From the NCBI RefSeq assembly GCF_003018255.1, contig NZ_CP027440.1: DNA of 64,000 nt, one strand, 5' to 3'. The DNA comes from Escherichia coli. Its GTDB lineage: Bacteria > Pseudomonadota > Gammaproteobacteria > Enterobacterales > Enterobacteriaceae. The notes beneath the pieces were generated by a model that had not been told where the DNA came from, did no database searches, and saw only the letters and a program-made list of their open reading frames with translations. The position numbers were made by a program, and so were the translations under genes. Shown here piece by piece: positions 54,211 through 57,876 of the stretch. Each line of letters opens with the position of its first letter. The first letter of the stretch is position 1.

Positions 54211-55443
54211 ATGTCGTCATTTGATTACCTGAAAACTGCCATCAAGCAACAGGGCTGCACGCTACAGCAGGTCGCTGATGCCAGCGGTATGACCAAAGGG
54301 TATTTAAGCCAGTTACTGAATGCCAAAATTAAAAGCCCCAGCGCGCAAAAGCTGGAGGCGTTGCACCGTTTTTTGGGGCTTGAATTTCCCCGACAGAAGA
54401 AAACCATTGGTGTCGTATTCGGTAAGTTCTACCCGCTGCATACCGGACATATCTACCTTATCCAGCGCGCCTGTAGCCAGGTTGACGAGCTGCATATCAT
54501 TATGGGCTTTGACGATACCCGCGACCGCGCGTTGTTCGAAGACAGCGCCATGTCGCAGCAGCCCACGGTGCCGGATCGTCTGCGCTGGTTATTGCAAACC
54601 TTTAAATATCAGAAAAATATCCGTATTCATGCTTTCAATGAAGAGGGCATGGAGCCATATCCGCACGGCTGGGATGTATGGAGCAACGGCATCAAAAAGT
54701 TTATGGCTGAAAAGGGGATCCAGCCGGACCTGATCTACACCTCGGAAGAAGCCGATGCGCCACAGTATATGGAACATCTGGGGATCGAAACGGTGCTGGT
54801 CGATCCGAAACGCACCTTTATGAGTATCAGCGGTGCGCAGATCCGCGAAAACCCGTTCCGCTACTGGGAATATATCCCCACTGAAGTGAAGCCGTTTTTT
54901 GTGCGTACCGTGGCGATCCTTGGCGGCGAGTCGAGCGGTAAATCCACCCTGGTAAACAAACTTGCCAATATCTTCAATACCACCAGTGCGTGGGAATATG
55001 GTCGCGATTATGTCTTTTCACACCTCGGCGGTGATGAGATCGCATTGCAGTATTCCGACTACGATAAAATCGCGCTGGGACACGCACAATACATTGATTT
55101 TGCAGTGAAATATGCCAATAAAGTGGCGTTTATCGACACTGATTTTGTCACTACCCAGGCGTTCTGCAAAAAGTACGAAGGGCGGGAGCATCCGTTCGTG
55201 CAGGCGCTGATCGATGAATACCGTTTTGATCTGGTTATCTTGCTGGAGAACAACACCCCTTGGGTGGCGGATGGTTTACGCAGCCTCGGCAGTTCGGTGG
55301 ATCGCAAAGAGTTCCAGAACTTGCTGGTGGAGATGCTGGAAGAGAACAATATCGAATTTGTGCGGGTTGAAGAAGACGATTATGACAGCCGTTTCCTGCG
55401 CTGCGTGGAGCTGGTGCGGGAGATGATGGGGGAGCAAAGATAA
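54211..55443 (+). CDS. nadR: Trifunctional NAD regulator / NMN adenylyltransferase / RN kinase
   Basis: MSSFDYLKTAIKQQGCTLQQVADASGMTKGYLSQLL (HTH), with the motifs GKFYPLHTGH and GGESSGKST. 410 aa. Confidence 0.96.
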   Translation: MSSFDYLKTAIKQQGCTLQQVADASGMTKGYLSQLLNAKIKSPSAQKLEALHRFLGLEFPRQKKTIGVVFGKFYPLHTGHIYLIQRACSQVDELHIIMGFDDTRDRALFEDSAMSQQPTVPDRLRWLLQTFKYQKNIRIHAFNEEGMEPYPHGWDVWSNGIKKFMAEKGIQPDLIYTSEEADAPQYMEHLGIETVLVDPKRTFMSISGAQIRENPFRYWEYIPTEVKPFFVRTVAILGGESSGKSTLVNKLANIFNTTSAWEYGRDYVFSHLGGDEIALQYSDYDKIALGHAQYIDFAVKYANKVAFIDTDFVTTQAFCKKYEGREHPFVQALIDEYRFDLVILLENNTPWVADGLRSLGSSVDRKEFQNLLVEMLEENNIEFVRVEEDDYDSRFLRCVELVREMMGEQR

Positions 55444-55485
55444 TCATCTTTATAAGATGTTGAGTGGGATTACTGATTCAAAAGT

Positions 55486-55518
55486 GTACTTAGTACTCCA
55501 TTTTGGTGTACAATGTAC
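55486..55518. promoter_or_regulatory. Paired GTAC-N3-GTAC palindromes in the TA cassette promoter, a candidate antitoxin operator
   Basis: GTACttaGTAC (55486-55496) and GTACaatGTAC (55508-55518), 22 bp centre to centre. The second overlaps a TACAAT -10-like hexamer 17-27 bp upstream of the toxin start. Confidence 0.5.
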
Positions 55519-55534
55519 CTTCCAGGGAGGGGTA

Positions 55535-55867
55535 ATGGGTAAGGCGATAATATTTATAGAGACGCCAATGTTTACGCGTCAGATCAAGCAGATTGCAACC
55601 GATGATGAATTAAAGGAATTACAAAAAGAACTCATCGGAACTCCCGATAAAGGTGATCTCATTCAGCAGACTGGTGGATTGCGTAAAGTCCGAATGGCTG
55701 CGGGTTCACAGGGAAAAAGTGGCAGTGTCAGAATAATTTACTTTCTGGCGACGGAAGAGATTATTTATTTGATTATGGCCTATCCGAAAAATGCCAAAGA
55801 TAGTCTGACAGATACGGAAAAAGCTCAACTAAAGAAGTTGACGAAACTGCTCAAAGGCGAGATATAA
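55535..55867 (+). CDS. RelE/ParE-superfamily (HigB-like) toxin, 110 aa
   Basis: GGGAGGGG Shine-Dalgarno, then MGKAIIFIETPMFTRQIKQIATDDELKELQKELIGTPDKGDLIQQTGGLRKVRMAAGSQGKSGSVRIIYF... . This is the pattern of COG4737/RelE-fold toxins that pair with a downstream HTH antitoxin (memory). Confidence 0.7.
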   Translation: MGKAIIFIETPMFTRQIKQIATDDELKELQKELIGTPDKGDLIQQTGGLRKVRMAAGSQGKSGSVRIIYFLATEEIIYLIMAYPKNAKDSLTDTEKAQLKKLTKLLKGEI

Positions 55868-55868
55868 A

Positions 55869-56153
55869 ATGAGTTTTTTTGATGAGTTGAAAACCTCTCT
55901 GGAAGAGGCTGTCGAGATTAAACAAGGTTTAAAAGAACCTGCACGGGTGACCCGCTACGAAATTGCGGATGTTAAAGCTATTCGTGAGCAACTCAACGTT
56001 TCGCAAAGTGAGATGGCAAAAGCTCTGGGAACCAGTGTGGATACCATTAAAAGCTGGGAATCGAAGCGAAGAAATCCTACGGGATTGGCTGCAAAAGTAC
56101 TTGCCACAATTAAAGAAAATCCTGACTTTTTCCGGGAACTTGCCTCCCATTAA
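55869..56153 (+). CDS. XRE/MqsA-C-terminal-like HTH antitoxin, 94 aa
   Basis: The start is 1 nt after the toxin stop. The HTH reads IREQLNVSQSEMAKALGTSVDTIKSWESKRRNPTGLAAKVL. Confidence 0.7.
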   Translation: MSFFDELKTSLEEAVEIKQGLKEPARVTRYEIADVKAIREQLNVSQSEMAKALGTSVDTIKSWESKRRNPTGLAAKVLATIKENPDFFRELASH

Positions 56154-56167
56154 TCATTTAACTAATA

Positions 56168-56197
56168 CCGGATGCGATGCTGGCGCGCCGCATCCGG
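56168..56197. terminator. REP-like hairpin / bidirectional terminator between the TA cassette and ettA
   Basis: CCGGATGCG ... CGCATCCGG followed by CATTTTAC, between convergent genes. Confidence 0.5.
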
Positions 56198-56208
56198 CAT
56201 TTTACGCA

Positions 56209-57876
56209 TTACTTCGCAATACGCTTGTACTTGATACGCTTCGGCTCCAGCGCGTCTGCGCCCAGCGTGCGTTTCTTGTACTCTTCGTACTCGGTAAAGT
56301 TACCTTCGAAGAACTCAACTTTACCCTCATCCTGGTAATCCAGGATGTGCGTGGCGATACGGTCGAGGAACCAACGGTCGTGCGAGATAACCATCGCGCA
56401 GCCCGGGAACTCCAGCAGGGCGTTTTCCAGCGCGCGCAGGGTTTCGATATCCAGGTCGTTGGTTGGTTCGTCGAGCAGCAGCATGTTGCCGCCAACTTGC
56501 AGCAACTTCGCCAGATGCAGACGACCGCGCTCACCGCCGGAGAGTTCGCCAACGCGTTTACCCTGATCAACCCCTTTAAAGTTAAAGCGGCCAACGTAGG
56601 CGCGGCTTGGCATCTCGGTGTTGCCGATTTTCATGATATCCAGCCCGCCGGAAACTTCTTCCCAAACGGTTTTGCTGTTATCCATTGAGTCACGGAACTG
56701 ATCAACCGATGCCAGTTTCACCGTTTCACCCAAAGTGATGGTGCCGCTGTCCGGCTGTTCCTGACCAGAGATCATACGGAACAGCGTCGATTTACCCGCA
56801 CCGTTCGGACCGATGATCCCGACGATCGCCCCTTTCGGGATCGAGAAACTCAGGGAGTCAATCAGCAGACGATCGCCATAGGATTTACGCAGATTGCTGA
56901 CTTCCAGCACTTTGTCGCCCAGACGCGGTCCAGGTGGAATAAACAGTTCGTTGGTTTCGTTACGTTTCTGATATTCGGTGCTGTTCAGTTCTTCAAAGCG
57001 CGCCAGACGTGCTTTACCTTTCGACTGACGGCCTTTAGTACCTTGACGTACCCACTCCAGCTCTTTCTCAATCGACTTACGACGCGCAGCTTCTTGTGAA
57101 GCTTCCTGCGCCAGACGCTGATCTTTCTGCTCCAGCCAGGAGGAGTAGTTACCTTCCCACGGAATACCTTCACCGCGGTCCAGTTCGAGGATCCAGCCCG
57201 CAACGTTATCGAGGAAGTAACGGTCGTGGGTAATCGCCACAACGGTGCCTTCGAAGTCGTGCAGGAAGCGTTCCAGCCAGGCCACGGATTCGGCATCCAG
57301 GTGGTTGGTCGGTTCGTCGAGCAGCAGCATGTCTGGTTTTTCCAGCAGCAGGCGGCACAACGCCACGCGACGACGCTCACCACCGGAGAGGTTAGCGATT
57401 TTCGCGTCCCAATCCGGCAGACGCAGCGCATCCGCCGCACGCTCCAGCTGAACGTTCAGGTTGTGACCGTCGTGAGCCTGAATGATCTCTTCCAGACGGC
57501 CCTGTTCAGCGGCCAGTTTGTCAAAATCGGCATCCGGATCGGCGTACAGTGCATACACTTCATCCAGGCGTTTCAGGGCGTTAACCACTTCAGAAACCGC
57601 TTCTTCAATGGACTCACGCACGGTGTGTTCCGGGTTCAACTGCGGTTCCTGCGGCAGATAACCAATCTTGATATCCGGTTGCGGACGCGCTTCGCCTTCG
57701 ATGTCTTTATCAATGCCCGCCATAATGCGCAGCAGGGTGGACTTACCCGCGCCGTTCAGACCCAGGACACCAATTTTTGCCCCAGGGAAGAAACTCAGAG
57801 AGATGTTTTTCAAAATATGACGTTTCGGCGGAACAACTTTGCCGACACGATGCATGGTATAAACGAATTGAGCCAC
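56209..57876 (-). CDS. ettA: ABC-F energy-dependent translational throttle protein
   Basis: 555 aa with two ABC cassettes (GLNGAGKST and GPNGAGKST; LSGGERRR and LSGGERGR). Confidence 0.97.
   Translation of the reverse strand: MAQFVYTMHRVGKVVPPKRHILKNISLSFFPGAKIGVLGLNGAGKSTLLRIMAGIDKDIEGEARPQPDIKIGYLPQEPQLNPEHTVRESIEEAVSEVVNALKRLDEVYALYADPDADFDKLAAEQGRLEEIIQAHDGHNLNVQLERAADALRLPDWDAKIANLSGGERRRVALCRLLLEKPDMLLLDEPTNHLDAESVAWLERFLHDFEGTVVAITHDRYFLDNVAGWILELDRGEGIPWEGNYSSWLEQKDQRLAQEASQEAARRKSIEKELEWVRQGTKGRQSKGKARLARFEELNSTEYQKRNETNELFIPPGPRLGDKVLEVSNLRKSYGDRLLIDSLSFSIPKGAIVGIIGPNGAGKSTLFRMISGQEQPDSGTITLGETVKLASVDQFRDSMDNSKTVWEEVSGGLDIMKIGNTEMPSRAYVGRFNFKGVDQGKRVGELSGGERGRLHLAKLLQVGGNMLLLDEPTNDLDIETLRALENALLEFPGCAMVISHDRWFLDRIATHILDYQDEGKVEFFEGNFTEYEEYKKRTLGADALEPKRIKYKRIAK

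Follow-up and report, generated by a model that had tools for sequence, protein, structure and literature searches.

A probable chromosomal HigB2/HigA2-type toxin-antitoxin operon in the nadR-ettA spacer of Escherichia coli and the probable GTAC-N3-GTAC operator motif of its family

Introduction

The genes considered here, nadS and the toxin-like gene immediately upstream of it, lie between nadR and ettA in Escherichia coli, within a 64,000-nt stretch of NZ_CP027440.1 that we refer to as the window and whose positions serve as coordinates throughout. Among their closest described counterparts is the HigB2/HigA2 pair of Vibrio cholerae (VCA0468-0469; PDB 5JA8, 5JAA and 8A0X), which sits in the superintegron of that organism rather than in a nadR-ettA spacer. 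The two loci are alike in several respects: a toxin-first operon, a RelE-like toxin of about 110 residues with an R/R/Y/K catalytic set, an antitoxin of about 100 residues in which an N-terminal neutralising segment precedes a C-terminal XRE helix-turn-helix (HTH) domain, and an operator, a probable one in the window, with TGTAC half-sites overlapping the -10 element. In the V. cholerae toxin residues R51, R64, Y82 and K84 were shown to be important by mutagenesis, and HigB2 was set apart from the HigB of Rts1 (PMC5416850), while HigA2 protects a single TGTACGC-N5-GCGTACA site that extends over the -10 element (PMC11006873). A plasmid-borne HigB2/HigA2 system of Acinetobacter baumannii (pAB120) has been characterized experimentally as a ribonuclease toxin that is neutralised by its antitoxin, with autorepression by the latter (PMC5906591). 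It shares the broad toxin family with the window pair, and differs in its plasmid location and in a sequence identity below 60%, a value taken from the identity bands of our plasmid matches.

A more distant comparison is with MqsR/MqsA of E. coli, which is also toxin-first and whose promoter carries two palindromes. MqsA binds AACCT-N3-AGGTT, with half-sites 3 bp apart as in the probable operator described below (PMC4894380).

The window pair itself has been catalogued before. Bustamante and Vidal (2020, PMC7232551) listed as TA30, 'ParE-3/YiaG-2', two open reading frames (ORFs), 333 and 285 bp long and 1 nt apart, that lie between nadR and ettA in adherent-invasive E. coli NRG857c (NRG857_22205/22210) and uropathogenic E. 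coli CFT073, and called them a genomic islet that K-12 and HS lack; this is evidently the same locus and the same genes. RefSeq also annotates both genes, naming the toxin 'RelE/ParE family', and a literature query by RefSeq accession returned no papers. The pair is an ordinary type II toxin-antitoxin module, already annotated and catalogued, and the analysis below covers its family, its promoter region and the states of the spacer.

Results

Gene organization and identity of the toxin

The nadR stop codon, TAA, was read at 55441-55443. Downstream of it on the + strand, the toxin gene occupies 55535-55867 (ATG 55535, TAA 55865-55867; 110 residues; WP_000513550.1) and nadS occupies 55869-56153 (ATG 55869, TAA 56151-56153; 94 residues; WP_000007437.1), with a single nucleotide between them, in agreement with an earlier note on this DNA that had described a 110-residue ORF followed after 1 nt by a 94-residue HTH ORF. 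A strong Shine-Dalgarno sequence, GGGAGGGG (55525-55532, + strand), precedes the toxin gene, and GGAG-like motifs are found at the equivalent place in homologous loci. Taken with the family assignments and the operator described below, we consider it highly probable that positions ~55480-56156 represent a type II toxin-antitoxin operon of the HigB2/HigA2 kind, in a chromosomal copy.

The toxin matched the Pfam RelE model PF06296 at 40.2 bits (cut-off 27, E 4.6e-10), and its best solved relatives were the V. cholerae HigB-2 structures (5JA8/8A0X; E 8e-17, residues 6-102). In the alignment R51, R64, Y82 and K84 of VcHigB2 correspond to R53, R66, Y83 and K85 of the window toxin, so that all four catalytic residues are retained. 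Neither Rts1-type model, HigB (PF05015) or antidote_HigA (TIGR02607), matched the pair at E <= 0.1. The earlier description of a toxin-first RelE-superfamily cassette with an HTH antitoxin resembling HigBA therefore holds, and can be narrowed to the V. cholerae HigBA2 type as opposed to the Rts1 type. As judged from its sequence, the toxin is a HigB2-type member of the RelE superfamily and a predicted mRNA interferase.

RelE and ParE proteins have a common fold. The RefSeq name, and the CDD superfamily label 'ParE-3' quoted in PMC7232551, might point to ParE, and it was reasonable to ask whether the toxin is instead a gyrase poison of that type. However, the RelE model scored above its cut-off while no ParE_toxin Pfam model matched at E <= 0.1, the nearest solved relative is a ribosome-dependent mRNase, and the RelE-like catalytic set is conserved, which together make a ParE-type toxin extremely unlikely. 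In place of the ParE-like label of the TA30 report we therefore assign the toxin to HigB2/RelE (PF06296).

Some weaker resemblances were also recorded. A weak likeness of the toxin (55535-55864) to CARF models and to Crn1, a CRISPR ring nuclease, appeared in NCBIfam, PADLOC and the PDB (E 0.003-0.15, with 0.004 in NCBIfam and 0.14 in the PDB), and we set it aside as probably noise or a distant resemblance of fold. PADLOC assigned no defence system, returning only weak generic HTH and CARF-like matches (E >= 1e-5), and the toxin and NadS each matched phage protein families of unknown function.

NadS, a probable HigA2-like antitoxin

NadS matched the NCBIfam equivalog NF041265 at 182.5 bits (cut-off 60) over positions 1-94 of 94, and its C-terminal XRE HTH was recognized by Pfam HTH_3 (2.9e-10). 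As a single sequence it aligned to V. cholerae HigA-2 over residues 33-92 (E 8.9e-7); a profile of 25 NadS homologs extended the alignment to positions 3-92 (E 5.8e-9), which takes in the N-terminal segment that neutralises the toxin in HigA2.

We also considered an MqsA identity for NadS and rejected it. The MqsA models reached NadS through the C-terminal part of each model only, and below the family cut-offs (PF15731, 22.7 bits against 30; TIGR03830, 38.6 bits against 61.8, E 7.9e-10), consistent with a distant similarity between the MqsA C-domain and the NadS HTH. NadS contains no cysteine and lacks the N-terminal zinc-binding CxxC domain, and it is therefore not an MqsA; nor is the window toxin MqsR-like.

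The gene name, together with the position next to nadR in Escherichia, could be taken to mean that NadS is a regulator tied to nadR and NAD metabolism and not an antitoxin. A survey of NadS with one genome per species yielded 80 loci at 77-97% identity, 79 of them outside Escherichia and one in an Escherichia genome. In none of the 79 non-Escherichia loci was nadR or ettA adjacent, and most had a HigB2-like toxin gene directly upstream in the same order as in the window. Given in addition that NadS is homologous to the antitoxin HigA-2 over almost its whole length, a role in NAD metabolism has next to no likelihood, and, nadR adjacency being limited to Escherichia, the name reflects only the Escherichia neighbourhood.

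In 15 of the 79 loci no HigB2-like toxin was recognized upstream of NadS by tblastn at E <= 1e-5 (L006, L011, L012, L015, L024, L026-L028, L031, L034, L064, L065, L067, L073 and L082); in these NadS may be an orphan antitoxin or may have another kind of toxin as its partner.

A probable GTAC-N3-GTAC operator conserved across the family

Upstream of the toxin gene, on the + strand, are two GTAC-N3-GTAC units 22 bp apart, as the earlier note had reported. The distal unit, GTAC-TTA-GTAC (55486-55496), is a probable NadS site and lies where a -35 element would be expected; the proximal unit, GTAC-AAT-GTAC (55508-55518), contains TACAAT (55509-55514), a probable -10 element. The two are the only such sites in the window, where about 0.33 would be expected, and their occurrence is thus far beyond chance.

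To these we compared 59 distinct upstream regions of homologous toxin genes, taking sites within 100 bp of the start codon. The motif was present in 57 of the 59, singly in 37 and doubled in 20, against a background of one occurrence in the remaining 281,693 bp of the homologous loci. Its placement was equally regular: in nearly all promoters the proximal copy begins 29-38 nt ahead of the toxin start codon, and distal copies begin 49-59 nt ahead of it, at a spacing of 19-22 bp that is mostly 21-22. The family consensus is GGTGTAC-nat-GTAC, and it is plausible that the central TAC(T/A)AT of the operator is the -10 element; in the window we infer this function for TACAAT.

The protein side is similarly constrained. 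The recognition-helix region of NadS, GTSxDTIKSWE..RRNPTGLAAKVL, is invariant in the 25 homologs except for one conservative position and the two dotted ones, and an invariant recognition helix agrees with an invariant DNA motif. From these comparisons of sequence, GTAC-N3-GTAC is very likely the operator of NadS, and this family-wide conservation turns the palindromes of the earlier note into a credible operator.

Relatives of the cassette are mobile

The family shares DNA homology with the window over 55476-56159 only, from the operator to the antitoxin stop, and past the nadS stop the homologous loci diverge immediately. Homologous toxin genes were found on 622 plasmid records, 272 of them from Acinetobacter. 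Among the remainder, near-identical plasmids of about 5.2 kb from Yersinia ruckeri, Citrobacter and Pectobacterium (H135-H144, for example NZ_CP098700.1, 5,191 bp) encode a toxin 82% identical to that of the window, and the chromosomal cassette could plausibly derive from plasmids of this kind. Across the Enterobacterales, close relatives of the cassette reside for the most part on small plasmids and at diverse chromosomal locations. Given the lack of nadR adjacency elsewhere, the limits of the homology and the carriage on plasmids, the pair behaves as a small mobile module of the addiction type.

Allelic states of the nadR-ettA spacer

Among 5,426 complete E. coli genomes, the promoter and toxin were present in 672-673 (~12%, about one in eight), at 95-100% identity and always on the chromosome, and an intact RelE/ParE toxin coding sequence was annotated in each of the 40 carrier rows sampled. 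Carriers include UM146 (B2) and several avian pathogenic and uropathogenic strains; the cassette of NRG857c and CFT073 is known from the TA30 report (PMC7232551).

In most other genomes the promoter and toxin have been deleted, at least twice independently, leaving nadS or a fragment of it. The K-12 allele reads nadR-TAA-CCG and continues with ~30 nt from the 3' end of the toxin gene, the first 38 codons of nadS and three repetitive extragenic palindromic (REP) elements; RefSeq lists nadS as a pseudogene there. K-12 is therefore not devoid of any gene at this place, as the earlier note had it, nor simply without the two genes, as in the TA30 report, but holds a remnant. This remnant forms a 55-residue ORF (L001 778-945) in which NadS codons 1-38, encoding the toxin-neutralising segment, precede a REP-derived tail, and its translation has been reported by PIRT-seq (PMC12350097). 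Relative to the window the 38 codons carry five nonsynonymous and two synonymous changes, a pattern that looks neutral.

At least 35 genomes (for example CFSAN061771) show the K-12 toxin deletion, yet their nadS is intact and their right flank is that of the window; in CFSAN061771 an IS1397-family element lies in the REP directly downstream of this toxin-less nadS (L085 713-980). L005, a genome separate from E. coli at species level within Escherichia, lost the promoter together with the initial ~80 codons of the toxin gene through another, independent deletion. No single event can relate the right flank of K-12, with three REPs, to that of the window, with one; recombination has probably been involved.

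In roughly one genome in ten, as estimated from evenly spaced match rows, the nadS fragment is followed by several kb of unrelated genes, which makes the spacer a variable hotspot. In MLI114 (L004 3385-6302), for instance, at least 3 kb separate the fragment from ettA, with genes for a GNAT acetyltransferase and for DUF1471, SRPBCC, SDR and aldo/keto reductase proteins.

Finally, a few percent of E. coli genomes have a cassette-free allele, TAAGAACCAATGCCTGATGCG..., and Salmonella has the same cassette-free junction and REP pair. The 46 nt past the nadR stop (TAAGAACCAATGCCTGATGCGACGCTTACCGCGTCTTATCAGGCCT) and the two-REP arrangement are common to cassette-free E. coli (L002 743-860) and Salmonella (L088 2734-2856); in the window their place is taken by one REP-like hairpin. 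The other outgroup spacers examined lack both the cassette and TAATCAT. In one of them an opposite-strand gene for a GerE-family regulator overlaps the 3' end of nadR and fills the nadR-ettA spacer (L087 3686-4270), a further sign that the spacer varies across genera.

These states suggest that the cassette entered an ancestral Salmonella-like spacer, probably directly past the nadR stop, and that later deletions would have stripped the promoter and toxin from most genomes; the dominant process visible today is toxin loss.

TAATCAT is not an insertion scar

The earlier note had proposed that the cassette was inserted by duplication of TAATCAT or by microhomology, with the two heptamers marking its exact ends. 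The observation behind this is correct: one copy (55441-55447, + strand) contains the nadR stop and the other (56151-56157) contains the nadS stop, the two are perfect and exactly 710 bp apart, and the right copy falls where the family homology ends. Nevertheless, since the TAA stop is already common to both, only four further bases must match, and 33 different 7-mers occur at least twice within 55380-56260 (881 bp), so that the repeat is not beyond chance. Furthermore, the left copy falls about 30 bp short of the conserved unit, given that family homology starts at about 55476, and the right copy reads TAATCAG in L005.

If the heptamers were a scar, empty sites would be expected to read as the collapsed junction, nadR-TAATCATTTAACTAATACCGG. 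We therefore searched the 5,426 genomes with synthetic queries of 407 nt and 70 nt. The collapsed site ...TAATCATTTAACTAATACCGGATGCG... was absent from all of them, neither query giving a one-piece match, and the best matches to the 70-nt query were two-piece and fell in toxin-deleted alleles. In E. coli and Salmonella without the cassette the sequence is instead as given above, with TAAGAACCAATGCC at the empty site in place of a collapsed TAATCAT. In the ORF list and sequence, neither a recombinase gene nor inverted-repeat ends were noted in the cassette or its immediate flanks. An origin by TAATCAT duplication or microhomology is consequently very unlikely; we regard the heptamer as refuted as a scar and judge the left copy a coincidental repeat of the right one. 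The direction of the event proposed in the earlier note, an insertion at this place, is by contrast probably right, given the cassette-free spacer in Salmonella and in a minority of E. coli.

A hairpin downstream of nadS

Between nadS and the convergent ettA, outside the mobile unit, lies a REP-like hairpin (56168-56197, strand unspecified) with a predicted RNA fold of -20.9 kcal/mol (z -2.47), followed on the + strand by UUUU. Its right arm is common to the REP region of K-12 and Salmonella, and it is a probable bidirectional terminator for nadS and ettA. An Rfam scan of 55300-56300 matched no family at E <= 0.1.

Discussion

By analogy with VcHigBA2 (PMC5416850, PMC11006873) and the Acinetobacter plasmid system (PMC5906591), a mechanism can be proposed for the window pair. 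A single promoter would drive the toxin gene and nadS as a bicistronic mRNA, and the two genes, 1 nt apart, may be translationally coupled. The toxin would act as a ribosome-dependent RelE-like mRNA endonuclease through R53, R66, Y83 and K85, and the N-terminal segment of NadS, a helix followed by a strand, would neutralise it. A NadS dimer would repress the operon by binding, through its invariant C-terminal HTH, to the GTAC-N3-GTAC units over the -10/-35 region. If the labile antitoxin were degraded, or the genes lost, the toxin would be released and translation arrested.

The analysis established how the genes are arranged, which families they belong to, that the catalytic residues and the operator are conserved, and which alleles exist; the toxicity, neutralisation, DNA binding and promoter of the E. 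coli pair we infer. Several points weigh against this picture. The overlap of the palindromes with a TACAAT -10, as the earlier note had it, stands as far as the presence of the hexamer is concerned; a simple sigma-70 consensus scan called no promoter at the palindromes and found no good -35. (Two promoter calls of the sigma-70/terminator scan inside the toxin gene were within shuffle expectation and were ignored.) Of the four residues through which VcHigA2 contacts bases, three (R68, E71 and N72) are replaced in NadS by D58, K61 and S62, and the operators differ, with GTAC-N3-GTAC in one or two copies here against the single N5-spaced site in V. cholerae, which puts 7 bp between the GTAC cores here and 13 bp there. 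Given these differences in contact residues and half-site spacing, the binding geometry of HigA2 cannot simply be copied to NadS. Lastly, that other lineages have so often lost the toxin shows the module to be dispensable.

The same loss raises the question of whether the module is a dead relic in this strain too, with the toxin inactive or unexpressed and NadS alone relevant, if anything is. That most E. coli genomes lack the toxin while retaining nadS or a piece of it, that 15 of the 79 non-Escherichia loci have NadS and no recognizable toxin, and that no consensus promoter was called would all fit such a state. In the window, however, both ORFs are intact, as are the operator and the Shine-Dalgarno sequence, which conform to the family consensus; the four catalytic residues are retained, and the promoter-plus-toxin segment is maintained at high identity, with intact coding sequences, in its 672 carriers as sampled above. 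We therefore think a dead relic clearly unlikely, and prefer an intact HigB2/HigA2-type operon.

Two further ideas we give a small chance, holding them to be rather unlikely: that NadS represents a separate operator class within the HigA2-like antitoxins, and that toxin-less nadS serves as an anti-addiction element against incoming HigB2-type plasmids. On the first idea, the NadS family may combine an 11-bp GTAC-N3-GTAC unit of MqsA-like geometry, often doubled two helical turns apart, with an invariant helix, unlike HigA2. On the second, intact nadS alleles may protect in this way, as possibly may the 55-residue NadS' fragment of K-12, which keeps the neutralising segment and is reported to be translated.

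Beyond bookkeeping, the importance of the locus itself is small. What the present analysis adds to a catalogued module is a family-wide operator motif, a decay series, and the correction of two labels, since the toxin is of HigB2/RelE type rather than ParE type and K-12 holds a remnant rather than an empty site. GTAC-N3-GTAC now stands as a well-supported operator motif for a widespread toxin-antitoxin family of plasmids and chromosomes, and the nadR-ettA spacer, with its empty, intact, toxin-deleted (antitoxin intact) and antitoxin-fragment alleles, offers a natural decay series in which the loss of such modules can be studied.

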